Virus genome (UHGV): UHGV-0371537
From: a virus
Direction: 5' to 3' (one strand)
Length of the DNA: 64,000 nt
The notes beneath the pieces were generated by a model, which had not been told where the DNA came from, searched no databases, and was given only the letters and a program-made list of their open reading frames with translations. This document shows positions 3,505 to 35,771 of this stretch, one piece after another (the stretch's first letter is position 1; the number at the start of each line of letters is the position of its first letter). Made by a program: the position numbers and the translations under genes.

Positions 3505-5223
3505 GTGACAGCATTCAATCAATATACCAAGGCGCTTGATGGCGTCGGACCAGTTAGCATAGACCGCATCAAGTCTCTTGCCACTGAGTTCTTCCCATAC
3601 GACACCGCCAACCCCGGCCAGATGGAGTGCATCGTTGAAGCCGTTGATGCCCTTGTGAATAAGAAATTCAAACACGTGATCATCGAGGCTCCAACTGGTG
3701 TGGGCAAATCCCTCATTGGCACGACCATCCATAACGTGCTTCGCCATCTGGTTCTTGAGCGCAACCCATATGGTCAGTTCCGCACGTCTATCACGACGCC
3801 GACCAAAGGGCTACAGGATCAGTATGCGGCGGAGAAAGCCGTGGCGATAGACATCCTGAAGGGTAAGAAAAACTATCGTTGCCATATCAGTCCCGACCTG
3901 TACTACAACGCCATTCAGTGTCGTATGGCATGCCGTGACGGCCACTGTAGTAAGAATCGTTGCCCATATGTTCAGGCTCGTCGTCTTTGGACGGATATCT
4001 CCTCCCTGCGCTGCACCAACGCCGCCATGATGGTGGAGATGTGCACGACGATCTGTATGAAGCCCGAAAACCGCGCCGATATGCTGATCCTTGACGAGTG
4101 CCATAAGATGCCCTCTACGCTCCTAGAGCACACGATCATGGAATACAGTATAAATGCTGTAAGAGGGTTGCTTACAATCCCCGAGGGAGTGCCTATCGTG
4201 GAGACCATCACGGATATCATCAGGCGCACAGAAAACTATGAGCTGGGCAAGCTGTACTCACTAACAGGTGAGATGCATGCGATCTTTGACGACCTGCATG
4301 ACAAGGTTGAAGCCCTCTTAGAAACCCTTGAGGAACTGGTAGAAGACGAGCGCCTGACGGAAGCTCAGGTGATGAAGCTGTCTGACATCATTGACACCCT
4401 TCACAACCTCAGCGACTACTGTGGCATCATGGGTCAGACCAACGCCAGCACCTTCATCGTTCAGGAAAAAGACAAGGGTATGATCCAGTTCAAGCCTGTC
4501 ATCGCATCTGATGTGTCTCAGTTCGGCCTGTTCCGCAAGGGCGATTACCATGTTCACATGTCAGCGACCATCTGCGGGATTGAGTCCTATGCTCGTTCTC
4601 TGGGTATCCGTGAGGGCGAATATCACAAGATTCAAATCGGCAACCCCATCCCGATTGAGAATCGTAAGGTCAACTACATGCCCGTCATGAAGATGTCGGC
4701 CAACATGGGCGACTACGAGATGAAGAAGCTGGCCGAGTACGTGGATGAGATCATTGCATTCCATCCAGGACAGTCTGGCATCATTCACACAGTCAGTTAT
4801 GACCGCGCTCTGGCTCTACAGAAGTTCAGCAAGTACCGGAATATGATTCACGTTCCTCGTACTCGTAAGGCTCTGATGGATATCATGGAGCAGGCGTTCA
4901 GGACGAAGACGCCTTGTGTCATCGCCAGTCCGGCTATGGAAGAGGGGTATGACTTCAAAGGCGATTACAGCCGCTTCCAGATCCTGATCAAGGTTCCATA
5001 CGATTACCTTGGTGACCCGCTTGTGGCTCATGTAAACAGTGTAGACCCTTCGGCATACTTCAGGATGGCGGTACTGCGTATCGTGCAGATGTGCGGGCGC
5101 TCGGTCAGGGGTGTGAATGACTGGGCTGCGACATACATCCTTGATTCTTCATTTGAATCATTAATGATGCGCAACCCAGAGTTCTTCCCCGCATGGTTCA
5201 CCGATGCTGTGTTCGAGGTTTAG
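3505..5223 (+). CDS. SF2 helicase with DinG/XPD-like features (possible Fe-S helicase)
   Basis: GTG start after aggagg; Q-motif PGQM, Walker A EAPTGVGKS, DECH box, cluster of Cys (RCH..QC..AC..HC..RC) between Walker A and B as in XPD/DinG Fe-S domains. Confidence 0.7.
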   Translation: MTAFNQYTKALDGVGPVSIDRIKSLATEFFPYDTANPGQMECIVEAVDALVNKKFKHVIIEAPTGVGKSLIGTTIHNVLRHLVLERNPYGQFRTSITTPTKGLQDQYAAEKAVAIDILKGKKNYRCHISPDLYYNAIQCRMACRDGHCSKNRCPYVQARRLWTDISSLRCTNAAMMVEMCTTICMKPENRADMLILDECHKMPSTLLEHTIMEYSINAVRGLLTIPEGVPIVETITDIIRRTENYELGKLYSLTGEMHAIFDDLHDKVEALLETLEELVEDERLTEAQVMKLSDIIDTLHNLSDYCGIMGQTNASTFIVQEKDKGMIQFKPVIASDVSQFGLFRKGDYHVHMSATICGIESYARSLGIREGEYHKIQIGNPIPIENRKVNYMPVMKMSANMGDYEMKKLAEYVDEIIAFHPGQSGIIHTVSYDRALALQKFSKYRNMIHVPRTRKALMDIMEQAFRTKTPCVIASPAMEEGYDFKGDYSRFQILIKVPYDYLGDPLVAHVNSVDPSAYFRMAVLRIVQMCGRSVRGVNDWAATYILDSSFESLMMRNPEFFPAWFTDAVFEV

Positions 5224-5987
5224 TAACCCGCCACGAAGGACAGATGGCATTTGACATTAGGTTCCAATGATGTCACTGAAATTGTCATGCTGTCCGAATC
5301 TTGGCTGAAACTAATGTTGGCGAGAGGTTTGGTCTGTATGTGATTGTAGATGCTGTAGAACAGATCCTCGCCACGATACCCGACCTTGCCATCGGTGTCC
5401 TGCCAATGCCCCAGGGTTTCATCGTATACATGCACACGAAACTCGATCATGTGGAAGAGTGCCTTGGGGATGTCTTTGAGTATACTGGTGCCAACCACCG
5501 GAATCTCAATAGCTGAATCATTAGAATTCCCTTCATAGACCGAAGCCCATGCGAAGGTAGGATCACCGCCTGCAACAGGTGTACGCTTCCAGTATTGGAA
5601 CTCAGGGTTGCCTGAAGTGTTCTTCTGAAGTAGAATGACTTCGCCACCTGTGAAGTTCGTGGTGTCAATGTCATCTCTCTCAAGTACATCGGCCGGAGAC
5701 CCAATAAATTTCCAGCCTTCGCGATCCAGAAGAGACTTATAATAGTCGGTGAACACGTTGCTATCGCCAGCGGAGTTGATGGCGTCTTTGAGGCCTTGGC
5801 CTGTCACCATCTCATTCAGGCGAAGCCACATGTCCTTGACGGCAGACGCAGCTGCGACCTGCCCGACAGTCCCACCTGCAGTGTAATCATAGATGATATC
5901 TTCGAACTTGATAGCATCATTGATGGACAAGAGCAGTTGCTCAATCTGCGGTGCGGTGAGACTGAAACGATATGCGCGGGGTGCCAT
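5220..5987 (-). CDS. late-expressed protein, probable virion component (unassigned)
   Basis: ATG at 5987 with AGAGGA RBS; TATAAATA late-promoter box 35 nt upstream on minus strand; no family recognised. Confidence 0.55.
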   Translation of the reverse strand: MAPRAYRFSLTAPQIEQLLLSINDAIKFEDIIYDYTAGGTVGQVAAASAVKDMWLRLNEMVTGQGLKDAINSAGDSNVFTDYYKSLLDREGWKFIGSPADVLERDDIDTTNFTGGEVILLQKNTSGNPEFQYWKRTPVAGGDPTFAWASVYEGNSNDSAIEIPVVGTSILKDIPKALFHMIEFRVHVYDETLGHWQDTDGKVGYRGEDLFYSIYNHIQTKPLANISFSQDSDSMTISVTSLEPNVKCHLSFVAGY

Positions 5988-6022
5988 AGTTTCATTCCTC
6001 TTTCTATAAAACCAGTTTGGGA

Positions 6023-6030
6023 TATTTATA
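6023..6030 (-). promoter_or_regulatory. T4-type late promoter box TATAAATA
   Basis: Plus-strand tatttata 6023-6030; 35 nt upstream of minus-strand ATG 5987. Confidence 0.5.
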
Positions 6031-6032
6031 TC

Positions 6033-6560
6033 ATGATAGAAATTTATTCTGACGGGGGTTCTAACCCGAAGACCAACCAGGCCGCAGGCTGGGCATTTGC
6101 CATTAAGCCGATGTCGGGTATGCAATGGAAAGTGTTCTTTGGGCACCTTCCGCCGCCATCGACGAATAATATCGCCGAGTTGTTGGGAGTCACGAACGCA
6201 TTGAAATTACTGTGGGCATTCTCTAGAAAGGGTGAGCGCAGCATACCGGACGTCCGCATCTGGTCCGACAGCCAATACACCATCAATAGCGTACTGGAGT
6301 GGCGAGCGAAGTGGGAGTATCAGGGGTTCCCGGAAAAGAACGTTGAACTCATAAAAGATCTGTTCAGGATCTATGATCTCGTTAGTTCAATTTGTGAAGT
6401 TGAACTAAAATGGGTCAAAGGTCATGCGGGTGTTGAAGGTAACGAACTCGCAGACACGTGGGCTACTGCAGCCAAGAATGACAGCAACTTCCTGATTGAG
6501 AACGACAAGATCTCTGTGAAGAAAGTTGTTGGATCTTTTGATGAATTTATCGGTATCTGA
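6033..6560 (+). CDS. rnhA: ribonuclease HI
   Basis: MIEIYSDGGS...AELLG...KWVKGHAGVEGNELADTWA = RNase H type 1 catalytic motifs; start at internal ATG 6033 of ORF 5796-6560. Confidence 0.85.
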   Translation: MIEIYSDGGSNPKTNQAAGWAFAIKPMSGMQWKVFFGHLPPPSTNNIAELLGVTNALKLLWAFSRKGERSIPDVRIWSDSQYTINSVLEWRAKWEYQGFPEKNVELIKDLFRIYDLVSSICEVELKWVKGHAGVEGNELADTWATAAKNDSNFLIENDKISVKKVVGSFDEFIGI

Positions 6561-6571
6561 GGGTTCCCACA

Positions 6572-7300
6572 ATGGGTATGAATTATGTTGATCGTGGCGA
6601 GAATGTCGTCAAATATTTTACGGACGAAGATAACGAGCGTGTCATCAGTATCCTTCGTGACTGGATCCCCGCCCGTAAGAAAGCACTGGCCGAAGGAACA
6701 AGACTTCCAAAGATCCCCAACTATGTTGCTGTCCAAGTCCAGCGCATCATCACCAAGATGAGCACCCGCTACAATTATCGTGACTATCCCTTCCGTGAGG
6801 ACATGGTCTCTGAAGCCGTCGTGAACATCCTTCGTTACCTCCACACGTTTGACGTCGGCCATGTGGGCAAGAAAGGCAAAATCAATTTCTTTTCCTGGGT
6901 GACCATGTGTGCTGATCGTTCCTTCGCTCGCAAACTGAACATTGAAGAAGAACACACTTACATCAAGTTGCGCTCCTTTGAAGAGGCAGGCGGTTTCGCA
7001 GGGCTGGCTGATGACCCAGATTTCCAACAAGAGGTCTTCGTTGATGCTACTGGGATTGGTATGGACTTCCGCGAGCGCATCGGTAACTTCGAAAACAAGA
7101 AGGACGCCCAAAGACAGCGGGAACGCGAAAAGGTAGAGACCGCCCGAGCCGCTGAATCGAACAAAAAGATAGCGAAAGGCATACTTCAATACATGTCTCA
7201 GGGTAAGAATACCCCAACAGCGCAGGCCGAAGACGATTCAGATCAGGACTTCGGTAATACCCAATTCGATCTGGAAGAAAACGAAGGAGAAACAGAATAA
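6572..7300 (+). CDS. 55: late-transcription sigma factor gp55-like
   Basis: DW..., RYNY, LHTFD, CADRSF align with T4 gp55 (DWK, RFNF, LHNFD, CFNAF); directly upstream of gp47/gp46 as in T4; acidic C-terminal tail. Confidence 0.75.
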   Translation: MGMNYVDRGENVVKYFTDEDNERVISILRDWIPARKKALAEGTRLPKIPNYVAVQVQRIITKMSTRYNYRDYPFREDMVSEAVVNILRYLHTFDVGHVGKKGKINFFSWVTMCADRSFARKLNIEEEHTYIKLRSFEEAGGFAGLADDPDFQQEVFVDATGIGMDFRERIGNFENKKDAQRQREREKVETARAAESNKKIAKGILQYMSQGKNTPTAQAEDDSDQDFGNTQFDLEENEGETE

Positions 7301-8415
7301 TGGCGATTGCTAAAATCGGCGATCTGCATATCGGGAGCCGTAATGGTTCCCGTTACGTTCGCGACTTCATTAAGAACTATCTCATCAATTATTTCATCCC
7401 CGAGCTGGTCGCCTCCGACATCTATGAGGTGTGGCAGTTCGGTGATACGTTTGATGTCCGTAAATTCATGTACGGGCGTGACAAAGACTGGATGAAGGAT
7501 GAACTCACCCCTGCGTTGAAAGCGGCTGGTATCAAGTGGAATGGTATCGTGGGCAACCATGACATCACCCTGGAAGAGTCCAACCGCATCAACTGGCCAT
7601 CCTACCTGAACGAACTCGACCCTGACGTCTACCACTACTACAGTGAACCGACCGAAGTGATGATTGAGGGTGTTAAGACCCTGCTACTGCCGTGGATCAA
7701 CAAGGAGAACTATGATGCGTCTATTAAGGCGATACAAAATACAGACGCCAAGTACTGTTTTGCGCATTTGGAGTTGGCAGGGTTCAAAATGTACCAGTCC
7801 TCTACTTGTGATCACGGTCAGATCGACGTTACTCTCCTTTCCAAGTTTGACCGGGTCGATACGGGGCATTTCCATACCCGTTCGATGGAAGGTAACATTC
7901 AGTATATTGGGACTCCGTATCACCTGAACTGGGAAGACTACAAAGACGGCACCAACCGTGGCTTCTATGTAGACGACATGCGTGGCGGTGAAGTCTTCAT
8001 CCCTAATGCCGAGCACCAGACGCTGTTCCGCTACGTGGAATATGACTACACCAAATTGTCCTCCGATGACGAAGGCAATTGGATCGACCCGGAATGGCTG
8101 AACACAGGCTTGGGTATTGAAGGACAGATCGTTAAGGTAATCGTACAGAACCGCGACAACGCCAAGCATTATGAGAAGTTCTGTGATGCGATGAAGCGTT
8201 GCAAGTGTATTGACTACAACTTCATCGACCGGACGATTACCGTGGCGGCCGAGAAGGTTGAGGTCACCGAAGAGATGGTGGCAACCGATGCGGTGGAAGT
8301 CCTGAAGAAGGATATCCGCGCCGGGAACAACATCCAGCGCCCAGAAAATGTCTGCAAGCTGGCTGAGTACTTCTACAACGCTGCCCAACAACGCCTGAAC
8401 AAACTGGACGCATAA
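7300..8415 (+). CDS. 47: recombination endonuclease subunit gp47 (Mre11/SbcD-like)
   Basis: Calcineurin-like phosphoesterase motifs GDLHIG, GNHD, GHFH; immediately upstream of the Rad50-like gene. Confidence 0.85.
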   Translation: MAIAKIGDLHIGSRNGSRYVRDFIKNYLINYFIPELVASDIYEVWQFGDTFDVRKFMYGRDKDWMKDELTPALKAAGIKWNGIVGNHDITLEESNRINWPSYLNELDPDVYHYYSEPTEVMIEGVKTLLLPWINKENYDASIKAIQNTDAKYCFAHLELAGFKMYQSSTCDHGQIDVTLLSKFDRVDTGHFHTRSMEGNIQYIGTPYHLNWEDYKDGTNRGFYVDDMRGGEVFIPNAEHQTLFRYVEYDYTKLSSDDEGNWIDPEWLNTGLGIEGQIVKVIVQNRDNAKHYEKFCDAMKRCKCIDYNFIDRTITVAAEKVEVTEEMVATDAVEVLKKDIRAGNNIQRPENVCKLAEYFYNAAQQRLNKLDA

Positions 8416-8416
8416 C

Positions 8417-10753
8417 ATGACCCAAAGTACAGATATCCTGGCCAAATTTGGCAATCTTCTGAAGGAAGCTGACACCCCGGTAGAGGTGGAAGTCCCATTC
8501 GAAGTGCGTGATAACATTACGCACAAACTGACCTTCCGCAAAGGCCGCGCCAAGAACTTCCGCTCCATCGGCAATCAGTTCATGGAGATTGATTACCAGC
8601 GCAACCCGGCTACCCTCGTCACGTCCGATGACAACGGCGCGGGTAAATCCACGATGCTGGTGTGGCTGTTGTTCTTCGTATTGTACAACGACACGTACAG
8701 CAAGAAGGAGAAGAAGGCAGGTCTGGTGAACTCACAGAGCCGCAAGGAATGTGTGGGCGAGGTGGAGTTTGCCTGTCGCGGCAGCGAATGGAAGGTTCGC
8801 CGTGGCATTAAACCTGACTTTGTTGAAGTCTACCAGATGGCGGACGGCAAATGGATGCAGATCGATAATGAAGCAGCCAAGGCCGACATGAACAAGTACA
8901 TCGTGAACCTCATCGGCGTGGACCAGAAGATGTTTGAGAACTCTCTGGTTCTGGGTAAAGAGAAGTTCATTCCGTTTACGGAGATGTACACTGCCGACCG
9001 CCGCGCCATGGTGGAGACGATTTGGGACTTGGGCTTCTTCAGCCTGATGAACGAAGATGTCAAGGCCGCCATCAAGAAAGCAAACGAAAAGCTGGACACA
9101 ATCGCAAATGAATGTGCTTTGAAGGTTGTTGACCACACCAACAAGAAGACGCAGCTGCAGCAGATAGAGCAGTCCAATGCCCTTATCCAACAGCAGTCGG
9201 CTGATATTCTTGTGCAGCAACAGGAAGCACTGACTTCCCTGGACGCTGACATCGCCACCCAGAATGAAGAGCGCACCCGCCTCACAGCTGTGGAGTTTGA
9301 AGCCACCCAGGAAATGAAGACGGTGGAAAGCCGCCTGCATGATGAATCCATGGTTGAGATCGAGGCTGTGAAGAAAGACTTTGAAGCCAAGATCCAAACC
9401 GTGAAGAATGCTGCTCAGGACAAGGCTGACGATTATGAACGCATCGAAGTGTCTACCGCCGAGCATGATCTTCAGGTCTTGCGTGACCGCGCCTTTACAG
9501 TGGCCGAAAGCAAGAACACTCTACTCACCGAGCGCAATGCAAACCTGGATGCCCTGAACGCTGCTATCCAACGCCGCCAGCAGGGTGAGAACTTCCGCAT
9601 CAAGTTCCAGACCGAAATGGACGGACATCAGTCGGCCATCAAGCGCTTCCACGACATGGGGACTTGCCCTACCTGTACCCAACTGGTCTCCGATGACACC
9701 AAGGCGCGGATTGAGAGTGAGTACAATCCTCAGATCCAGGAACTGCAGTCGAAGTTAGATCAACTGGACAAAGTTACCGCCGATATCAATGTCCTGATCG
9801 ATGACCACAAGGCTCAGGACGATAAGTTGGTTGCCGATATTGCTGTGTTGGACGCTGAACTGGATGCAATGCGCAAGCAGGCCGACGAAATCGTTGACAA
9901 CATCAAACAGCTGCGCCGTGACATTCAGGGGTTCCATGACGCCGCCACGATCGAGTGTAACTCTCTGAACCGTGAATGTCAGCAGAAGATCCTTGACATC
10001 CGTAAGGCGTTGAACGTTCGTTTTGAAGACATCACTGCATCGCTGCAACAGACGCGGGAGAACGCCGTTAGCGGGATTAAAGCCGTCGATGATAAGATCG
10101 CCGAGCTGAAAGCCCGTCGTGCTCCTCTCGTGGCGTCGATTGCCGATCTGGAGCGTAAACTGTCTATACAGCCGACACCCACAGCCGACCTGGAGAATGC
10201 CATCTCCTCGATTGAGGGTGAACTGGAAGATCTATACCAGCGCCGCGAGGATGCTGACCAGGAACTTCAAGACTTACAGCACCTGTTGTTCTTCCTGAAG
10301 GATGACCAGACCAAGGCGCGCATCATCGCCCTGTACCTGCCATTCCTCAATAGCAAGATCAACGAGTATCTTGAAGCCCTTAACATGTTCCTGGACATCG
10401 TTGTTGACGATACCTTTGAGATCACCATGAGTGCAGCAGGTCGCAAGGGGCAGAGCATCTTTTCCTTGTCTACTGGCCAACGCAGTCGTCTGAACCTGGC
10501 TGTGACATTAGCCCTGCGTGATGTGGCTAACCTCAAGGCATCAGTGCAGTGCAACCTGTTCGTGCTGGATGAAATCCTTGAGAACATGAGCGAGCGCGGG
10601 GTGCAGGAATCGGTTGAGATGCTGAAGCATAAGTTCGGCGGGAACAACCTGTTTGTCATCAGTCAGCGTGAGCAGGAGTTCCAGGAATACTTCCAACACA
10701 ACATCCGTTATGGCCTGCGAAACGGCCTGACCGAAGTTATCAAGAAGGATTGA
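8417..10753 (+). CDS. 46: recombination ATPase gp46 (Rad50/SbcC-like)
   Basis: Walker A GAGKST, long coiled-coil, CPTC zinc-hook motif, ABC signature SGQRSR, Walker B LFVLDE. Confidence 0.85.
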   Translation: MTQSTDILAKFGNLLKEADTPVEVEVPFEVRDNITHKLTFRKGRAKNFRSIGNQFMEIDYQRNPATLVTSDDNGAGKSTMLVWLLFFVLYNDTYSKKEKKAGLVNSQSRKECVGEVEFACRGSEWKVRRGIKPDFVEVYQMADGKWMQIDNEAAKADMNKYIVNLIGVDQKMFENSLVLGKEKFIPFTEMYTADRRAMVETIWDLGFFSLMNEDVKAAIKKANEKLDTIANECALKVVDHTNKKTQLQQIEQSNALIQQQSADILVQQQEALTSLDADIATQNEERTRLTAVEFEATQEMKTVESRLHDESMVEIEAVKKDFEAKIQTVKNAAQDKADDYERIEVSTAEHDLQVLRDRAFTVAESKNTLLTERNANLDALNAAIQRRQQGENFRIKFQTEMDGHQSAIKRFHDMGTCPTCTQLVSDDTKARIESEYNPQIQELQSKLDQLDKVTADINVLIDDHKAQDDKLVADIAVLDAELDAMRKQADEIVDNIKQLRRDIQGFHDAATIECNSLNRECQQKILDIRKALNVRFEDITASLQQTRENAVSGIKAVDDKIAELKARRAPLVASIADLERKLSIQPTPTADLENAISSIEGELEDLYQRREDADQELQDLQHLLFFLKDDQTKARIIALYLPFLNSKINEYLEALNMFLDIVVDDTFEITMSAAGRKGQSIFSLSTGQRSRLNLAVTLALRDVANLKASVQCNLFVLDEILENMSERGVQESVEMLKHKFGGNNLFVISQREQEFQEYFQHNIRYGLRNGLTEVIKKD

Positions 10754-11610: not shown

Positions 11611-12225
11611 ATGACGATGACAACGTTGAAGGCCATGGCCTTGTCCGTGACCTTTACCATTGCCAGCGGGAATGTGCACGCTTCCCAAAATACAAGTCAA
11701 TGTGTTTATGATTTCTCTGAGCAACAACTTAATACGCTGGCAACTGCCTATCACATAGGCAAGACACAAGATCTTGGTTACACTCTGGCCGCCATATCTT
11801 GGCGAGAGAGCCGCGCTGGTGAAGATGTAGTGTCAATGCGCTATGGACTCAAGGCGGCCAACATGGGAGCCTTTCAGAACAAGGTGAAGACAGTTGGTGA
11901 TCGCGAAGGTTGTAAGAATCGCAAGTGCTATGCCAATGTCGCCATAAAGTTGCTGACCGACCAAGAATATGCCGCGCAAGCCGCCCTCGAAGAGATGCAG
12001 TTCTGGCTGACCTATCACAAGCAGAATGTACGCAAATCCCTCTCCTCTTACAATGCTGGCTTCGCCCGTAATCCCGCATCGAACGCTTATGCCGCTGACG
12101 TCGTGAAGAAAGCTAAATATCTTCAGAAATGTGTGTCCTTCAAAGGCCGGACCATCTCCGAGGTAGATCCTCAGGTGATCGCCATGAACAAGCGCACGAT
12201 AGAGAAACTGAAGAGGACAAGATAA
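11611..12225 (+). CDS. secreted lytic transglycosylase-like protein (SLT domain)
   Basis: N-terminal signal-peptide-like MTMTTLKAMALSVTFTIASGNVHA; AISWRESRAGE...GAFQ...YNAG resemble SLT catalytic motifs (E-S, GLMQ, AYNAG). Confidence 0.55.
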   Translation: MTMTTLKAMALSVTFTIASGNVHASQNTSQCVYDFSEQQLNTLATAYHIGKTQDLGYTLAAISWRESRAGEDVVSMRYGLKAANMGAFQNKVKTVGDREGCKNRKCYANVAIKLLTDQEYAAQAALEEMQFWLTYHKQNVRKSLSSYNAGFARNPASNAYAADVVKKAKYLQKCVSFKGRTISEVDPQVIAMNKRTIEKLKRTR

Positions 12226-12863
12226 TGAACATCACTCCATCTCAGACCGGATATGAACATATCTTGGTCTTCATCGCTCTACAGGGCGCGAAGGAAGGCA
12301 TCATCGTATCCGAGTACTCGGGGACTGTGCGCCTTGCCGATTACGTCGCACCCGAGGCGTTCATTAAGAAGTGTATTGATGCGTGGTGCCTCTATGCCCT
12401 CGGCACGTATCCTGCCCCTCCTGAGGGCGAGCTGTTGTTTACTGTACCGACTCCGGCTGCTGGCGATACGGACGCGATCTTTGCCGATATGCTGGCCAAG
12501 GGGTATCTGGTGTATGATATCACTCACGATGTCTACTCCTTCACCTCGCTGAACACCGTGTTTGGGTTCACCATCACGTCTGAAGCCAACATCCCTGACT
12601 GGGGCATCTTGGCGTGGGGCGTTGACGGCCTGGGCGCAACCTATGCATCGTCCGATGTCGGTCCTGTGTTGATTGATGAGGGTGTAACCATGGAGCAGTA
12701 CCTTGCTCAGTTCCCTCAGCACAATATCACAGGCAGCGACATCATTTTAGTTCAGCCTGGTGCTATCGCTCTCCCCCGTTTGGTGGATGGATGGAAGCCT
12801 CAGCTGAAGGATATCATCGCCGGGATCAGATTCCATATTCCTGTGGTGAACCCAACGCCGTAA
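12225..12863 (+). CDS. hypothetical protein
   Basis: ATG 12225 with gaagagga RBS; TAATG overlap with upstream gene. Confidence 0.45.
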   Translation: MNITPSQTGYEHILVFIALQGAKEGIIVSEYSGTVRLADYVAPEAFIKKCIDAWCLYALGTYPAPPEGELLFTVPTPAAGDTDAIFADMLAKGYLVYDITHDVYSFTSLNTVFGFTITSEANIPDWGILAWGVDGLGATYASSDVGPVLIDEGVTMEQYLAQFPQHNITGSDIILVQPGAIALPRLVDGWKPQLKDIIAGIRFHIPVVNPTP

Positions 12864-12922: not shown

Positions 12923-12970
12923 TCATTCCATAAGCAGTACGACACCAACTTGAAACGAAGGAACTATATT

Positions 12971-13330
12971 ATGGCTATCACCACAAAAACTGAATTGAAC
13001 GCGATCCTGAAAGAAGCTGGCTTCGGTAGTATCAAACGCCAGGGCAAGGTTTTACGCGATGGCGGTAAAATCGTAAAGGGCATCATGTTGGGAAGTACTG
13101 GCCCGTTGAGCATCAGCTCCCCTCAGTATGACAATCTTCGTAAACTGGCGCGTGAACTTCTCCAAGAAGACCTCCATATCACGACGCAAGAAACCAATTA
13201 TGTGGTTTTGGAATGCAACAAATTCATCGTCAGCCTTTACATCTGCAGCACCCGCTCATATCCGGTGTCTGAAGGTTATGACCCAATGTATCTGACCCAT
13301 TATGCTCAGGTTACTGTCAAAGCAAAATAA
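12971..13330 (+). CDS. hypothetical protein
   Basis: ATG 12971 in context ggaactatattATG downstream of promoter cassette; terminator follows. Confidence 0.5.
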   Translation: MAITTKTELNAILKEAGFGSIKRQGKVLRDGGKIVKGIMLGSTGPLSISSPQYDNLRKLARELLQEDLHITTQETNYVVLECNKFIVSLYICSTRSYPVSEGYDPMYLTHYAQVTVKAK

Positions 13331-13341
13331 TCAAATTCAAC

Positions 13342-13368
13342 GGGGAGCTTCGGCTCCTCTTTTGTTTT
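13342..13368 (+). terminator. rho-independent terminator
   Basis: Stem with ttcg loop followed by ttttgtttt. Confidence 0.6.
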
Positions 13369-13414: not shown

Positions 13415-15403
13415 ATGGCCACCCCATCTTTCTTAAATTTCCTTGAAGAGTCTAAACAATTAGACGAAGCGTTCAACTCCGCTCCGTATGAGCTGACCAT
13501 GGGTAAGAAGAACGCAGGCGATGTGTTCTTCACCTTCATCGACGAAGATGAAAAGGAATACCGTATTCAGTTCTATACCCCACAGGGGCTGGGCAAGAAC
13601 GTTCGTCAGGTCTTCATCGGCCAGAAGCGCGGCTCCGTCTACCCTGATGCCATCGCTCGCTTCAAAAACCCAATGCGCGTCATCGCCTCCATGATCGAAG
13701 CGACCAAGCAGTTCCTGGCGACCCCTCTGGGCAAGACCATCGATGGTTATGCTGTCAACTTCTCTAAGAAAGCGCTGGAACGCGGGATGACCCTGATTCC
13801 TAAGATCATCCGCCAGTCCGGCCTGAAGCAGAAACTGAACGTCATGGACCTGACTTACGCGCCTGTCCCTGACCGTGGTTATGTGTGGTTGGTCCGCAAG
13901 GGCAAAGATCCGGCTCAGGTATTCGACGGTCCGAAGATGCAGGGCATCACCTGGGATGATCCAGACAAGGTCGGTGACGTTCCGGTTCAGAACAATACCC
14001 CAGATGTGGGGACTTCATCTTCTGTTGATGATTCCAACGGATGGAAATTAACTTCAAACGGGGATCAGCCTATGTTGATCTGGGTTGGCAAAGAGAGAGG
14101 CCGCATGAACACGGCAAATATCGCTCCCCACTACAATGAGCCAGGCGTGTATGTTGGCGCATACATGAATGAGAAATCTGTGCGTGGGCAAAGTGCTGAT
14201 TTCATTGCTCGTCAGTTGAAATTACCGCAAGTCCCTATCAGTATCCTGAATGATTTCACCACGGCGTCCACAAAATTTTGGAAAGGTTCTCAGCAGAAGT
14301 CTGCGCCAGCTGACTCCAACACCACTATTGGTGCTCGGGGTGTGGGAACTGGGTCTGGTTCTTCTGAAATCGAAATCAACCGCGACTGGTACAACAGCTC
14401 AGACACTGGTCTGGTGTTGAAGAGCGGGCGCGACCCGATTCGCGGAAACTACACCCGCTTGATGAGCGGTTCGAGAGAAGTAGCCACATTCTATGGCTAT
14501 GATTTTGACAAATACCCAGACGGAACTGAAGTATCTTGGAATATGAAGCGCGGCTTCACCAACCAAGACTTGGTCGGTGCGTCCATGACCAAACAGAAGA
14601 AAGGCATGTACGATCAGTACACTTTCAAGAAAGGTGCTCAGTTAATTCTGGTGGTGGACGTTGATACCAGCAACAATACCAACACCCTCAGTTCTAACGA
14701 CCTAAAAATCCCGCGCAACGCCGAAGTATTCGGTGAAACTGGTAGTGGTTTCTCCGTTCGGTGGGCTGTCAATTTCCCCGAAACGGGAAAATATGCCGGT
14801 ACTTCTATGATAACCAACGTAACCTATTATCATGACAAAGGCAAAGTTGCATTCACCCCAATTGTCTCTCAGAAAGGGCGTACCCTGAACAATCCGAAGA
14901 CATATGAACTTCCTTTGAACAAAGATTTGGTCCAGAGTGTGATTGATGAGATTTCATCAAAAATGGTATATCTTTCCAGAAACCTCCAACAGTTGAAAAG
15001 TCAGACATACAACCCAAACCAGGTTTTCTTGAATGATATAACCATCACGGATAAAGGTGAAGTGATTTGGAACGATTACAACTTGTCTGACGGCAAAGTT
15101 ACACAAATTATGCTGTCCATGATAAGCGCAGAAAATAAACGCTTGGAGAAAGTGACAAACAGGCCGGATATCACATTACCAAAGAAACAAGCCGAAGTAG
15201 TAGAATTTATAAACCGGATGATTGATATTGATCTCGGACCTTATTTGAGAGAACCCAAAAAACGTGATGTGGTATTATTCGACTCTTCTGAATTGTCGAT
15301 AAACCAACTCAACAACATAGAACGCCTGGGAAGAGAAACAGGAAAATGGTCTCTTCAGTCAAACGGCGGTATGGGTCATGCACTATTTCTGAATGTTTGG
15401 TGA
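13415..15403 (+). CDS. large protein with capsid-targeting-like N-terminus (candidate encapsidated effector)
   Basis: aggag RBS; N-terminus MATPSFLNFLEE resembles T4 internal-protein/Alt targeting sequence; 3' part markedly A+T-richer. Confidence 0.65.
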   Translation: MATPSFLNFLEESKQLDEAFNSAPYELTMGKKNAGDVFFTFIDEDEKEYRIQFYTPQGLGKNVRQVFIGQKRGSVYPDAIARFKNPMRVIASMIEATKQFLATPLGKTIDGYAVNFSKKALERGMTLIPKIIRQSGLKQKLNVMDLTYAPVPDRGYVWLVRKGKDPAQVFDGPKMQGITWDDPDKVGDVPVQNNTPDVGTSSSVDDSNGWKLTSNGDQPMLIWVGKERGRMNTANIAPHYNEPGVYVGAYMNEKSVRGQSADFIARQLKLPQVPISILNDFTTASTKFWKGSQQKSAPADSNTTIGARGVGTGSGSSEIEINRDWYNSSDTGLVLKSGRDPIRGNYTRLMSGSREVATFYGYDFDKYPDGTEVSWNMKRGFTNQDLVGASMTKQKKGMYDQYTFKKGAQLILVVDVDTSNNTNTLSSNDLKIPRNAEVFGETGSGFSVRWAVNFPETGKYAGTSMITNVTYYHDKGKVAFTPIVSQKGRTLNNPKTYELPLNKDLVQSVIDEISSKMVYLSRNLQQLKSQTYNPNQVFLNDITITDKGEVIWNDYNLSDGKVTQIMLSMISAENKRLEKVTNRPDITLPKKQAEVVEFINRMIDIDLGPYLREPKKRDVVLFDSSELSINQLNNIERLGRETGKWSLQSNGGMGHALFLNVW

Positions 15404-15475
15404 AACAAGCTGAACTTGAACAGAATAAAGCCCCTCCGGGGGCTAATTACATCTAAATCCCCGAGGAGAGATCCA

Positions 15476-16048
15476 ATGAAACCTTTTATCGAATATTTTA
15501 AAGAGCAAGCTGCACAGCCTCAGACCCATGCTGGTGTCCAGGGTAAGACCGTATCCATCACCAAGCAAGCTGACGGCACCCAGTGGTGTTCCGGCGCTAC
15601 CGTGACCCAGATCACTCCTGACAATCAGGCGGATGTCTACAACCTGGAGTTAACCAACGGCAACACCATCAAGGTGAAGCTGACCCCAGACCAGACTCAC
15701 GGTATCTCCCAAGGTCAGGAAGTTGTTGCTGTCCACGATGGCTTCGAATTCTTCTTCTTCGGCAAGTCCGCCGACAAAGGCCAGGTGACTGAAGCCTATG
15801 CCCAGGAACTGGCGAACATGGACAAGATGATCGGTAAAGCACTGGGTGTTGGCAAGTCCCGCAAGAGTGGTCGCACTGAGTTCGAATACTCTGGCATCCC
15901 TGGCATCGGCAAGGCGATCACCGTGAACTTCGGCGGCGAAGATGACCCATATGTGATCGTCACCTGCAACGGCAAAGAGCAGGACATCAGCAAGGGTAAA
16001 AACCTGGCTGCTGACATTGCCAAGTTCCTCGGTGTTAAGCCTGTGTAG
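15476..16048 (+). CDS. internal-protein-like (capsid-targeting N-terminus)
   Basis: gaggag RBS; N-terminus MKPFIEYFKE resembles T4 CTS MKTYQEFIAE. Confidence 0.6.
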   Translation: MKPFIEYFKEQAAQPQTHAGVQGKTVSITKQADGTQWCSGATVTQITPDNQADVYNLELTNGNTIKVKLTPDQTHGISQGQEVVAVHDGFEFFFFGKSADKGQVTEAYAQELANMDKMIGKALGVGKSRKSGRTEFEYSGIPGIGKAITVNFGGEDDPYVIVTCNGKEQDISKGKNLAADIAKFLGVKPV

Positions 16049-16083
16049 AAGGGTGAACTTTGCAACCGGGTGAGTCGTAAAAT

Positions 16084-16108
16084 AAACCCCGCTTTTCGCG
16101 GGGTTTTG
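16084..16108. terminator. bidirectional rho-independent terminator between convergent internal-protein genes
   Basis: aaaccccgc-ttttc-gcggggttt: 9-bp stem flanked by A-run and T-run. Confidence 0.7.
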
Positions 16109-16714
16109 TTATTTCACATACATACTGACTTGTACTTTCTTACCTTTTTCGTTTTTGACGTCCATCAGCTTGGATGCACCATTCAGTTTCATGACGGTTC
16201 CGCGTTCTTTGCCGCCATTCGGTAACTCGTATTCAATATCTTCCCCAGGAGATGGCATACCCGCATGAGGTCCCATAACCATGGCGATCTTATAACGAGC
16301 CAAGCCGGGGCGACCGCCTTTATACGCATACCAACCACCTTCAGTCATTTCTTTCCATTGCTTGTTACCGTCAATGGAGATAAAGGAATTGCCCATACCT
16401 GATTTGACATCCAACAAGTCAATATATTTGCCTGATTTGTTGTACTTGACAGCGGTGTCAGTATCAACCTTGTCAATCATCTGGGCGCTGGCAAACTGTC
16501 CATCTTTCAATCCAGATGCTGAGATGATGTCTTTGGCATTGGCCAGGATTATCTTGCGACCGTCAGGGGTTTCAAAGGTGGCTTTGTCGCCACTAACACT
16601 AACTCGCAAGAAAGTGCCGATATTGTCTTCGGTGGACTTGCCGATCTTGTCTGACTTGATATGAACAGACATCGGTGGCGCGGCTTCGGTCAAAAAGTCT
16701 TGAAAAGTTTTCAT
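16109..16714 (-). CDS. internal-protein-like (capsid-targeting N-terminus)
   Basis: N-terminus MKTFQDFLTEA nearly identical in pattern to T4 CTS MKTYQEFIAEA; GGAGAA RBS. Confidence 0.65.
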   Translation of the reverse strand: MKTFQDFLTEAAPPMSVHIKSDKIGKSTEDNIGTFLRVSVSGDKATFETPDGRKIILANAKDIISASGLKDGQFASAQMIDKVDTDTAVKYNKSGKYIDLLDVKSGMGNSFISIDGNKQWKEMTEGGWYAYKGGRPGLARYKIAMVMGPHAGMPSPGEDIEYELPNGGKERGTVMKLNGASKLMDVKNEKGKKVQVSMYVK

Positions 16715-16803: not shown

Positions 16804-17157
16804 ATGGTTAACGCGAGTATTTTCATCAACCGTGGACTGCTTGCTATAGCCCACTCTCATGCCCTGCACTTCGTTACAACGTCCTATGCCAAGCACAAAG
16901 CTCTCGGGGAGTTCTACGGGGAACTGGAGGACTTGCTGGACACGTTTACCGAAGCATACATCGGTGCGGGTGGCCAGTACGTTCCGTCGTTTGAGAACAT
17001 CAAGCTCTATAACCCAGACCCTATCTCCTATGTCAACAGCGTGGTGATAGACGTCGATGGCATCTACAGGCAGTGCGACTCCCACCTTCAGAACACGCTT
17101 GATGAAATCAAGACGCTGTGCTATCAGACGATCTACAAACTGAAGCAGCTGTCGTAA
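16804..17157 (+). CDS. hypothetical protein
   Basis: ORF track; divergent from 16109-16714. Confidence 0.45.
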   Translation: MVNASIFINRGLLAIAHSHALHFVTTSYAKHKALGEFYGELEDLLDTFTEAYIGAGGQYVPSFENIKLYNPDPISYVNSVVIDVDGIYRQCDSHLQNTLDEIKTLCYQTIYKLKQLS

Positions 17158-17214: not shown

Positions 17215-17826
17215 ATGAGCAAAATCTTTACCCCGACACATCGTGAAGGATGTGAGATCGCGGCCAACTACCTGCGCGGTCGCATGAACTGCGGCGCAGT
17301 CTTCATCGAACCAAACTCCTTCGACAACAAAGAATCGCCAGATGCCATCGGGTTTCGTTCAGGCGGGTGCTCTGTCCTGATGGAAGTGAAGGTGTCCCGC
17401 GCCGACTTCCTCACCGACAAGAAGAAGCCCCATCGGATGGACCCCACAACAGGGATGGGCGCATACCGCTTTTATGTCTGCCCTCAGGATGTGATCAGGG
17501 TTGAAGACCTGCCACCAAAGTGGGGGTTGTTCTACTTCACACCTCGCAAGTCCCTGATGCCCGTTCATGTGCCGGACATGCAATACTCCTCGTTGTCATC
17601 ACCAGAGCATTATCAGAAGTATCTTGATGAACAGATCAAGAGAGGAAGAACCGTCACCCGGCATATGCGCAGCTACATGGAACTTCTCGACGGCTTCGCC
17701 CACTTTGAGCGCAACACGGCTGGAGAACAGAATATCCTGTATGGGGCTTGGCGGCAACTGTGTATAGCTCAAAGTCGTGGTGTAGACTATACTGTGACCG
17801 AAGTGTTCCAGAGGCCGAAGATCTAA
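17215..17826 (+). CDS. PD-(D/E)xK nuclease-like protein
   Basis: ESPDAIGF...VLMEVKVSRADF matches D...E-x-K restriction-endonuclease-fold core; start at internal ATG 17215. Confidence 0.45.
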   Translation: MSKIFTPTHREGCEIAANYLRGRMNCGAVFIEPNSFDNKESPDAIGFRSGGCSVLMEVKVSRADFLTDKKKPHRMDPTTGMGAYRFYVCPQDVIRVEDLPPKWGLFYFTPRKSLMPVHVPDMQYSSLSSPEHYQKYLDEQIKRGRTVTRHMRSYMELLDGFAHFERNTAGEQNILYGAWRQLCIAQSRGVDYTVTEVFQRPKI

Positions 17827-19210: not shown

Positions 19211-19283
19211 AGTTCACATAGGGCGGTAACACACCGCCGAATGAAAAGTGAAACGAACCAACTACATTATGAGGAATTACATC

Positions 19284-19772
19284 ATGGCTACTACCAAAAC
19301 TCTGATCACCAACGGCACCATCTCTTTCGAACTGAACACCGAAGTTGCTAAAGTTGAAATGTTCCGCATCGCTCAGGCAGCTGGCTTCACTGGTGGCAAA
19401 ACTTCCTTCATGAACCTGCTGAACGGCAAAGTGGAAGCGACTAACGGCTTCACCCTGGTAGAGCAGACTGTGGTTGACAAAGCCGTGGTTGCTAAGGCTG
19501 CTGACAAAGTTGGCATGCTGAAAGACCTGGGTCACGACATCCACGTTGTCGAAGCGAATACCGAAACTTACGGCACCATCGTAGTCGGTAAAGGTCGCAT
19601 CCAGCTGAACCCACTGAACAACGGTTCCTTCTCTGTGATGGTCTTCCCTAAGAAGGGCTATGACAACACAGACATCGTGAAAGCTGCTGGCGGCGAAGCG
19701 AAAGCTCAGTATGTCAAAATGGGTAAACTGAGCGCCAAAGACGTTCAGACCCTGGTGAGCAAACTGGCTTAA
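19284..19772 (+). CDS. hypothetical protein
   Basis: gagga RBS; sits behind promoter plus stem-loop cassette and before a terminator. Confidence 0.5.
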   Translation: MATTKTLITNGTISFELNTEVAKVEMFRIAQAAGFTGGKTSFMNLLNGKVEATNGFTLVEQTVVDKAVVAKAADKVGMLKDLGHDIHVVEANTETYGTIVVGKGRIQLNPLNNGSFSVMVFPKKGYDNTDIVKAAGGEAKAQYVKMGKLSAKDVQTLVSKLA

Positions 19773-34804: not shown

Positions 34805-34828
34805 AAAGCCCTCTTCGGAGGGCTTTTT
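34805..34828. terminator. bidirectional terminator between gene 32 and convergent minus-strand gene
   Basis: aaagccctc-ttcg-gagggcttt: 9-bp stem with A-run and T-run. Confidence 0.7.
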
Positions 34829-35771
34829 ATTTCCCCATCACGTCGCGCAAAATGCCGAGCAGATTTGTCTTTTCGGCTGCTGTCAAATTGTCATTTCCCA
34901 TGATGTCTCGTGAGATACCAACTGAGATGCGCTCGAAGTCCTGGAGACTGATTCCAGCAAGGTTGTTCACCAATTGGTCCAGTTGTTTGTAAGCCAGGAG
35001 AGCCTCTCCTGTGAAGTTCCCTTCCTTCACCTTGCGATAAAGCTGTCCGGCTTTGGAGGCCGCAGTTTCCCAGTCACCACTGGCAAGAGCATCAGCAATC
35101 CCAAGAGGAAGAAAATCGCTGGCAAGGCTGCGTGTTTCATATTCTGTCTCCGATAAGACTTTGTTGTAAGAGAATGTGATGTTGTATTGGTTGAACTGGT
35201 CTGTGGCTCCCTTGTCCAGTTCGATTGTACTGAAGTTGATCGGATGCGCTTCAACGATGTAGACGCGATGGACAACCTGATCTTCCGTATCCATCTGCTC
35301 GATACAGATATCGGTTACGAAATCTTCGTAATAACCCATCTTGGTCGTGTACGGATCAAAGATCAGATTCTTCCACTTGTCCATCACAGACTTTTCATAA
35401 TAATCGTTTGCCAAGAGGAATGTCAGATCCAAGTCCACGTTGGACTTGTTGTTCGGCATCTTGATGTGGTTGCCGTTGTTGGTCATTGGAGTCGTGTCGA
35501 TACCAACCCCTGGCATTCCAGCAACCATACACATCATTTGCAAGGAACGGGACGTTTGGTTTGTCCCTCCAAAGAAAGCGTTTACAATACGGGCTGTCTG
35601 TTTGAACAAATCACCAAACGAAGATCCGGTTGCATATGCCTTCCCGTCGTTGGCGAGAGTGGCATTGCTGTCGAATATGCCTGGTGGCAGGGGGATGGTG
35701 ACCCGGAATCGGTTCTTCCGTGATATCCCGCGCTGTAATAATTCGGTGATGAAATTGCGATAGTCTTCCAC
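34827..35771 (-). CDS. putative virion structural protein (tail/baseplate-associated, unassigned)
   Basis: GTG start with GGAG RBS; shares bidirectional terminator with gene 32; weak resemblance to tail-tube-family N-termini. Confidence 0.4.
   Translation of the reverse strand: MEDYRNFITELLQRGISRKNRFRVTIPLPPGIFDSNATLANDGKAYATGSSFGDLFKQTARIVNAFFGGTNQTSRSLQMMCMVAGMPGVGIDTTPMTNNGNHIKMPNNKSNVDLDLTFLLANDYYEKSVMDKWKNLIFDPYTTKMGYYEDFVTDICIEQMDTEDQVVHRVYIVEAHPINFSTIELDKGATDQFNQYNITFSYNKVLSETEYETRSLASDFLPLGIADALASGDWETAASKAGQLYRKVKEGNFTGEALLAYKQLDQLVNNLAGISLQDFERISVGISRDIMGNDNLTAAEKTNLLGILRDVMGK

Follow-up and report, generated by a model that had tools for sequence, protein, structure and literature searches.

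The window analyzed here is a stretch of 64,000 nucleotides (nt) of the viral genome UHGV-0371537, and the subject of this study is a locus of three adjacent open reading frames (ORFs) within it whose products may be packaged into the phage head by T4-type capsid-targeting sequences (CTSs). The source is an Agtrevirus-like phage of the Ackermannviridae, with parts of the region being 85-96% identical to phages SKML-39, SW16-7, and Gloob. The first ORF, g1 (13415-15403, plus strand), encodes a mosaic protein of 662 amino acids (aa) with the N-terminus MATPSFLNFLEE and an architecture resembling that of T4 Alt; the second, g2 (15476-16048, plus strand), encodes a two-domain protein of 190 aa starting MKPFIEYFKE; and the third, g3 (16109-16714, minus strand), is an accessory cassette of 201 aa starting MKTFQDFLTE. 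All three carry a putative leader, begin with ATG, have a GGAG Shine-Dalgarno motif 7-8 nt 5' of the start, and are present exactly where and with the N-termini that an earlier note on this DNA had described. When the 4-kb locus was used as a query, 54-70% of it was covered in Ackermannviridae relatives, and the uncovered parts were the middle of g1 as well as g3. A terminator-like hairpin lies upstream of g1 (13342-13359, plus strand), a GC-rich hairpin between g1 and g2 (15429-15444, strand not assigned), and a third one, a terminator, where g2 and g3 converge (16084-16106, strand not assigned); the last of these probably works in both directions. The equivalent of the g1-g2 hairpin in phage LIMEstone1 is followed by an exact T4-type late promoter, TATAAATA, 5' of the g2 homologue. 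A scan of the window for sigma-70 promoters gave results at chance level.

In the CTS of the T4 internal protein (IP) IPIII, residues 4 and 7 serve targeting and residues 8 and 10 serve processing, and the prohead protease gp21 cleaves after L/I-x-E to remove propeptides of 10-19 aa (Black-laboratory review, PMC9026906). These four positions are conserved in the leaders at this locus: both the g2 and the g3 family have an invariant F4 with F or Y (or H) at position 7, and F6 and F9 of g1 stand in the same register to the glutamate, while the processing residues are kept in full in the g1 and g3 families and in part in the g2 family. The N-terminal alignment and check for L/I-x-E sites that the earlier note had proposed thus came out in its favor for two families and only partially for g2. 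Its statement that IPI, IPII, and IPIII start MKTYQEFIAE is correct for IPII and IPIII but not for IPI, which starts MKTFKEFTSTTTPVSTITE↓A (arrows denote known or predicted cleavage points) and has a longer propeptide. The predicted propeptides at this locus all begin at Met1 and comprise 10 aa in g2 and g3 and either 12 or 18 aa in g1.

The g3 leader (residues 1-10, 16685-16714, minus strand), MKTFQDFLTE↓AAPP, can be set directly beside real T-even leaders such as MKTYQEFIAE, MKTFKEFINE↓AAAP, or MKTYQEFISE↓AA. In the g3 family, M1, K2, F4, L8, E10, and A11 are invariant, and BLASTP aligned g3 with RB15 Ip7 (MKTFKEFINEAAAPKTF) at 48% identity over residues 1-21 (E=5e-5); the leaders of the two proteins are nearly identical. 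The g2 leader MKPFIEYFKE (residues 1-10, 15476-15505, plus strand) shows invariant M1, F4, and E10 and nearly invariant K2 across 20 homologues, with Y/F/H at position 7 and F/L/M/Y at position 8. The longer leader or propeptide of g1 (residues 1-18, MATPSFLNFLEE↓SKQLDE↓A; 13415-13468, plus strand) consists of an F6-x-x-F9-L10-x-E12 core followed by L-D-E18↓A19 and is predicted by AlphaFold2 (AF2) to form a helix over residues 3-21. Across 29 homologues, its F6, L7, F9, E12, and E18 never vary, the LxE sites at 12 and 18 are kept in 28/28 homologues, and the family N-termini follow the pattern M-[SA]-x-[PL]-[SN]-F-L-x-F-[LM]-x-E, then invariant L-x-E18↓A-F-N-S; E18 stays invariant even in a diverse alignment with sequences down to 29% identity. 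The tandem g1 paralogues of Vibrio phage VAP7 (42% identity) start MSNSFINMLNE and MTKSFLELLSE and keep the junction ITE↓AF(D/N)SEPY; they are 663 and 1207 aa long (locus record 3930-9627), and VAP7 has no g2- or g3-type cassettes. The g1 homologue of Gloob (locus record 6253-8682), like several other database entries, has its start annotated 17 codons too far upstream (MVSLIRRNRHNSIR...), and the leader-bearing ATG (MSKPNFLQFMQE) is likely the true start of these homologues.

How specific such a pattern is was assessed with the regular expression ^M.{1,4}[FY]..[FY][LIMF].E, which a random N-terminus of window composition matches with P ~3e-4. Of 2348 possible starts over all six frames of the window, four are selected, namely g1, g2, g3, and a GTG-started gene (34827-35771, minus strand) for a gp54-like baseplate tail-tube initiator. 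The same expression matches only three syntenic genes in the 96 kb of the complete relative aagejoakim, and a slightly relaxed version picks out only 3-4 cassette genes per locus in four related loci. An independent profile built only from seven T-even leaders ranked g3 first among the 2348 starts (z=7.2), g2 8th (z=3.7), and g1 16th (z=3.1). Judged by these scores, the g3 leader is unmistakably of the T4 type, and those of g1 and g2 look like diverged T4-type versions that become convincing only when the family-level evidence is added. The gp54-like N-terminus, MEDYRNFITE, took the second rank against this profile; it is not conserved in aagejoakim and is probably a chance match. A possible fourth leader-bearing gene, p119 (12971-13330, MAITTKTELNAILKE↓A), was rejected because its glutamate is not kept in gp213 of phage Sajous1.

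The motif is short, the gp54-like gene shows that an unrelated protein can match it by chance, and conserved 5' ends might favor the exchange of cassettes by recombination, so one may ask whether the shared N-termini arose by chance or reflect a signal in the nucleotides (such as a context for translation initiation or a hotspot of recombination) and have no role in targeting. We find this barely credible. At the above frequency per N-terminus, matches are nonetheless found in three adjacent genes here and in 3-4 syntenic genes in every relative, the conserved residues are the functional ones of T4, and the pattern persists at 30-40% identity. Between paralogous leaders only 9-15 of 21 nt are identical and the codons differ; therefore, selection acts on the peptide. 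Homologues of g1, g2, and g3 also retain the leader in front of mature parts that have diverged or been exchanged.

A CTS is read by T4-type head machinery, and aagejoakim encodes a prohead protease (Peptidase_S77, 3.6e-28), a scaffold (T4_CASP, 2.8e-45), and a capsid protein (Gp23, 3.1e-122) together with a portal and a small core protein, with the Gp23 Pfam domain beginning only at residue 62 behind an N-terminal extension. With both an S77 protease and a T4-type scaffold in this relative, the machinery that reads a CTS is therefore present in the family. Published mass spectrometry (MS) of purified virions further detected ORF080 (g2 type), ORF081 (g1 type; 55% coverage, 23 peptides), and ORF082 (g1 type) in LIMEstone1, where they are listed as "unknown structural proteins," and in Sajous1 it detected gp214 (g1 type) as the third most abundant protein with 196 spectra besides gp215 (g2 type; 32 spectra) and gp216 (20 spectra). 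Of the proteins at this locus, g1 and g2 are those whose homologues are present in virions. The earlier note had named absence from purified virions as evidence that would speak against it, and homologues of g1 and g2 were found there. The conserved leaders with their T4 determinants, the protease and scaffold of aagejoakim, the virion homologues, and an Ip9-like domain in g1 (see below) together bear out its proposal of T4-type capsid-targeting leaders at a candidate packaged locus. The two LIMEstone1 proteins of the g1 type are encoded by a single homologue (locus record 4416-6012, minus strand) that is divided by a frameshift near codon 102 into ORF082 and ORF081, and this split may stem from an error in sequencing or be a genuine frameshift.

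These virion data have been interpreted differently for Sajous1, where gp214 is labeled a tail completion protein and gp214-217 are read, based on Phyre2 matches of 27-97% confidence, as an operon of tail- or baseplate-associated proteins with molybdate-binding and ferritin functions that would aid entry as a "ferrojan horse." A sub-threshold TOBE match of g2 (E=0.0096, 16.6 bits compared to the Pfam cut-off of 22.3 bits) and the presence of the Dps/ferritin-like neighbor in virions would fit this idea, and MS of whole virions does not resolve head from tail. Yet Pfam, NCBIfam, and PHROGs show no similarity to tail completion families, neither the tail module nor the tailspike module includes the locus, the leaders resemble sequences that target proteins to the head, g1 contains a domain of an internal head protein, and the Sajous1 authors' own host tests with TonB and FeoB showed no dependence. 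We therefore regard a tail location as extremely unlikely. It is also very unlikely that these are accessory proteins of the prohead core or scaffold in the style of T4 gp67 and gp68, which would join the core, aid the assembly of the head or the setting of its size, and be mostly degraded and expelled instead of delivered. Leader-like N-termini do occur on the scaffold (MKPELQKLFE) and the protease (MKLLREITAIG...IGE↓A) of the family, and g1 has further conserved [LIVM]-x-E motifs at E44, E95, and E512; but the high coverage in mature virions, with both halves of the LIMEstone1 protein detected, the dispensable and patchy nature of g3 and the gp216-type cassette, and the distance of the locus from the head morphogenesis module all speak against it.

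Behind its leader, g1 is built from modules that we mapped by BLASTP against 120 homologues. Module A (residues ~19-205, 13469-14029, plus strand) is a near-invariant N-terminal domain that is found in all 120 of them with almost all columns invariant across genera. It is followed by modules B (~206-310) and C (~311-425; together 14030-14689, plus strand), which are variable, joined by low-complexity linkers, and permuted, lost, or interrupted by insertions among the homologues (module C has a predicted local distance difference test score, pLDDT, of 21-32). Module D (~426-580, 14690-15154, plus strand) is a beta-rich domain with a long helix that all of these homologues share (coverage 108-120 of 120; pLDDT 57-75), and module E (residues 586-659, 15170-15391, plus strand) is present in about half of them. 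At 90% identity, the family as a whole falls into 279 clusters, and its proteins are 541-1105 aa long. Module E aligned by BLASTP with residues 17-89 of the 90-aa Ip9, a polymorphic internal head protein whose sequence was first obtained from RB15 (E=4e-12, 36% identity over 74 residues, which make up almost the entire mature Ip9), matched phrog_7673, "internal head protein" (2e-8), and found by tblastn Ip9 or "internal head protein" genes in 153 further records at <60% identity, with all of the listed matches being of the T-even type.

Module A extends well beyond the Ackermannviridae: tblastn found it in 356 phage records, including phages of Vibrio, Aeromonas, and Ralstonia, and an exhaustive HMMER search in 93 representative clusters of proteins of 279-1686 aa, where it is always N-terminal and nearly always preceded by a leader of 4-45 residues ending in hydrophobic-x-E↓(A/S)F(N/D)SxPY. 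Many Vibrio phage records contain two copies of it. Among 67 such distant proteins that were scanned, six carry a PF03496 ADP-ribosyltransferase (ART) domain as in T4 Alt and one a DinI-like domain. Module A itself has no Pfam match, and a low-confidence structural model gives a hint of a GNAT-like fold.

The g2 protein (phrog_4048; 27 clusters) has a candidate second protease site, V104-T105-E106↓A (15785-15793, plus strand), at the junction of its two domains. E106 is invariant, five homologues (P0028-P0032) swap the entire C-terminal half directly after it, and the protein of SKML-39 is lengthened by a further domain; cleavage after E106 may thus occur. The g3 protein is much rarer, with homologues in only 15 related phage records and 5 clusters among 5.8 billion proteins, and its AF2 model (pLDDT 79) contains small SH3/Tudor-like barrels only. 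Its C-terminal beta-barrel (residues 151-198, 16121-16264, minus strand) is shared with the gp216-type cassette (E=7e-5), of which the 79-aa Sajous1 gp216 fills the slot of g3 here and starts MKGFPDFLKE↓A. This barrel recurs not only at the C-terminus of g3 but also behind another domain in Gloob gene 90 and in g2-fusion homologues, and no kinship between g2 and g3 was detectable except for the barrel of this type that one fusion homologue brings in. Neither g3 nor the gp216-type cassette is indispensable, and both have a patchy distribution in relatives. Some cassette fusions retain leader-like junctions, such as ...GVKGMKTE↓GEIG in SKML-39 (5118-6038) and ...KNLKTE↓GVDH in Gloob_90 (5135-5617), which suggests that neighboring cassettes were fused in frame and maybe remain separable by the protease.

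No housekeeping domain emerged from Pfam, NCBIfam, and PDB sequence searches of g1, g2, and g3 and of the g1 modules, in which nothing scored above threshold. The earlier note, which had named such a domain as evidence against it and recognized no family in the mature parts, was right to this extent; it missed the Ip9-like C-terminus and the widespread N-terminal family of g1 as well as the SH3/Tudor-like barrels of g3.

Taken together, we consider it probable that the Ackermannviridae have in this locus their equivalent of the polymorphic IP loci of T-even phages and of Alt. The short amphipathic N-terminal leader, with an aromatic residue at -6, an aromatic or hydrophobic one at -3, L/M/F at -2, and Glu at 0, would tie each protein to the gp22-type scaffolding core during prohead assembly like a T4 CTS. 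The gp21-type (S77) prohead protease would then cut after the glutamate, that is at E10↓Q in g2, at E10↓A in g3, and most likely at E18↓A in g1, so that the predicted mature proteins start with AFNSAPYELTMGK (after E18) or SKQLDE (after E12) for g1, QAAQPQTHAGVQGK for g2, and AAPPMSVHIK for g3, plus AYAQELANMDK if g2 is also cut after E106. Packaging through the leader and these exact sites are predictions based on strong comparative evidence. The mature proteins would stay inside the DNA-filled head until they are ejected along with the genome upon infection: g1 as a carrier in the manner of Alt that joins a near-invariant N-terminal domain to shuffled modules and an Ip9-like end, g2 as a protein of two domains, the second of which relatives exchange, and g3 as a patchy beta-barrel cassette that replaces or accompanies the 79-aa cassette of relatives. 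By analogy to T4 and to distant relatives that carry ART and DinI-like cargo, the variable cargo would most likely act on the host at entry in counter-defense or takeover.

Packaging through the leader could also serve a purely structural purpose. T4 IPII and IPIII have often been assumed to be DNA-associated or structural internal proteins, and proteins of this kind would help to condense, organize, or eject the genome without any effector role. Several properties of the locus agree with this: mature g1 and g3 are basic (pI 9.1 and 9.3) like T4 IPs, g3 and the gp216-type cassette consist of small barrels of the Tudor/SH3/KOW-like fold, for which binding of nucleic acids is frequent, the g1 homologue is very abundant in Sajous1 virions, module A is as near-invariant as expected of a conserved structural role, and no enzyme domain was recognized in the cargo encoded in the window. 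What fits poorly is the mosaicism of g1 with its many clusters and permuted modules, the swaps in g2, and the patchiness of g3; furthermore, distant module A proteins bear ART and DinI-like cargo, and the diversity of T-even IPs has been ascribed to pressure from host defenses (PMC3012670). We thus rate a purely structural role as rather unlikely.

Several observations weigh against our preferred interpretation as a locus of injected host-directed proteins. The head module lies outside the window, so that the protease is deduced from relatives, and the virion MS deals with homologues of g1 and g2 and with the cassette of the gp216 type but with no g3-bearing phage. For g2, the predicted site F-K-E is not a canonical L/I-x-E, and the mature protein is weakly acidic (pI 5.9) where T4 IPs are basic; the leaders of g1 and g2 reach z-scores of only ~3-4 against T-even leaders. 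The exact T4 late promoter TATAAATA has two sites in the window, neither of them upstream of g1, g2, or g3. Leader removal and ejection in Ackermannviridae are predicted steps, the latter by analogy to T4, and no effector fold was recognized in the cargo of the window, for which the models offer only the barrels of g3 and a low-confidence prediction for g1. To our knowledge, only IPI and Alt among the T4 proteins of this kind have known host-directed functions, and packaging does therefore not imply an effector role.

A more far-reaching interpretation would see the g1 family as a modular vehicle for delivery that is widespread in T4-related phages, differs from Alt, and includes the release of fused cassettes within the capsid. 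We consider this possible but on the whole unlikely. If true, it would combine a removable leader with a near-invariant N-terminal domain, perhaps a GNAT-like enzyme that is injected as well, and a string of exchangeable cargo. Should the prohead protease cut at the junctions (VTE↓A in g2, GMKTE↓G in SKML-39, LKTE↓G in Gloob_90), the fusions would be freed in the capsid as separate injected proteins, and modules and neighboring cassettes may fuse and separate over evolution.

The genes around the locus include some for further candidate virion proteins. Upstream, 11611-12225 (plus strand) encodes an SLT-domain transglycosylase (Pfam 2e-4, just at the cut-off) with a signal-peptide-like N-terminus, MTMTTLKAMALSVTFTIASGNVHA↓SQ; it is labeled "RegB" in relatives, and its Sajous1 homologue gp211 gave 31 virion spectra. 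The adjoining DUF7270 protein (12225-12863, plus strand; 1.4e-113) has no leader motif, and in LIMEstone1 its homologue ORF085 has been confirmed as structural. Downstream, 16804-17157 (plus strand) encodes a DUF5856 protein of 117 aa (Pfam 8.8e-30), a homologue of T4 rI.-1 that is annotated as Dps/ferritin-like. Its homologues are found in virions of LIMEstone1 (ORF078) and Sajous1 (gp217), yet it begins with MVNASIFINRG..., without a CTS-like leader. It is followed by a conserved 203-aa protein (17215-17826, plus strand) that has no Pfam match and is syntenic even in VAP7 (gp182); its label "adenylosuccinate synthase" in Gloob looks doubtful. Finally, two unrelated genes share the upstream reading ...RNYIMA(I/T)TTKT (12950-12990 and 19248-19290), maybe as a common 5' context.

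Our results support the presence of T4-type CTS-directed internal proteins and an Alt-like carrier that had previously been undescribed in Ackermannviridae. We found no paper that combines the term "capsid targeting sequence" with Ackermannviridae, the terms internal, injected, and anti-defense do not occur in a 2024 review of the family, and a literature search on Ip7, Ip8, and Ip9 returned unrelated papers only. The earlier note's description of the locus as undescribed is thus apt for a CTS-type locus in this family but not for the proteins as such, whose homologues had already been listed as structural or tail proteins. Since Ackermannviridae are widely used and engineered in biocontrol, diagnostics, and therapy, it matters that reading the locus as T4-type IPs recasts several abundant "unknown structural proteins" and argues against the published "ferrojan horse" of the tail. 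Within a region that is otherwise conserved, the genes that vary most become candidate determinants of host range and counter-defense, and the leader might serve for packing foreign proteins into the heads of Ackermannviridae, as has been done with T4. In addition, the residue rules of the T4 CTS (positions 4, 7, 8, and 10) appear to hold across a family boundary, which would make more packaged proteins findable by sequence alone.

Among known systems of this kind, the giant phages phiKZ, 201phi2-1, and SPN3US contain abundant head-internal proteins, many of which are cut after the Glu of a short motif by a diverged gp21 homologue, and which are delivered to the host (PMC9026906). Their cleavage motif is a different one and their propeptides are often long with redundant sites, and no sequence relationship to their ejection proteins was found for the proteins at this locus. 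We know of no report of an inner body in Ackermannviridae. Iyer and colleagues reportedly described in 2017 polyvalent or mosaic virion-delivered proteins that unite a conserved delivery part with exchangeable conflict-related domains in one protein; g1 differs from these in that only the ART and DinI-like cargo of its distant relatives is recognizable.

T4 Alt is similar to g1 in size (682 compared to 662 aa), in its ~180-aa N-terminal domain followed by cargo, and in its propeptide site MELITE↓LFDE, which like ...LTE↓AFDS of the g1 family has the form hydrophobic-x-E. The ART domain of Alt (PF03496, 5.8e-36) is the one also found in the distant module A proteins, while g1, g2, and g3 contain none and the cargo of g1 consists of shuffled beta-rich modules and the Ip9-like domain. 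Homology between g1 and Alt could not be demonstrated: module A and Alt's N-terminal domain gave E=3.5 with BLASTP, E=0.62 with hhalign (colinear over 156 columns, with a thin profile), and E=0.032 at a probability of 1.6% with a diverse profile, and together with tblastn searches of the Alt N-terminal domain (E<=1) this amounts to a colinear but not significant match, which is why we keep Alt as an architectural analogy.

The closest parallel are the T-even IPs, diverse proteins that have only the CTS in common (PMC3012670). They belong to Straboviridae instead of Ackermannviridae and to another genomic neighborhood, and the locus here deviates in the opposite strand of g3, in the F-K-E↓Q of g2 compared to L/I-x-E↓A, and in mature parts that are unlike IPI, IPII, and IPIII; here, processing and ejection are predicted steps. 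The similarities are nonetheless extensive. T4 IPI-III and the RB15-type Ip5, Ip7, Ip8, and Ip9 carry the same leader of 10-19 aa (MKT[FY]x[ED]F[IL]xE↓A), both kinds of loci consist of clustered small genes whose mature parts are mutually unrelated and vary between close relatives, and both go along with a gp21-type protease, a gp22-type scaffold (here in the complete relative), and homologues in virions. In one case the relationship goes beyond the leader, since module E of g1 is a true homologue of Ip9 that appears here not as a free protein of 80 aa but as the last module of a protein of 662 aa.

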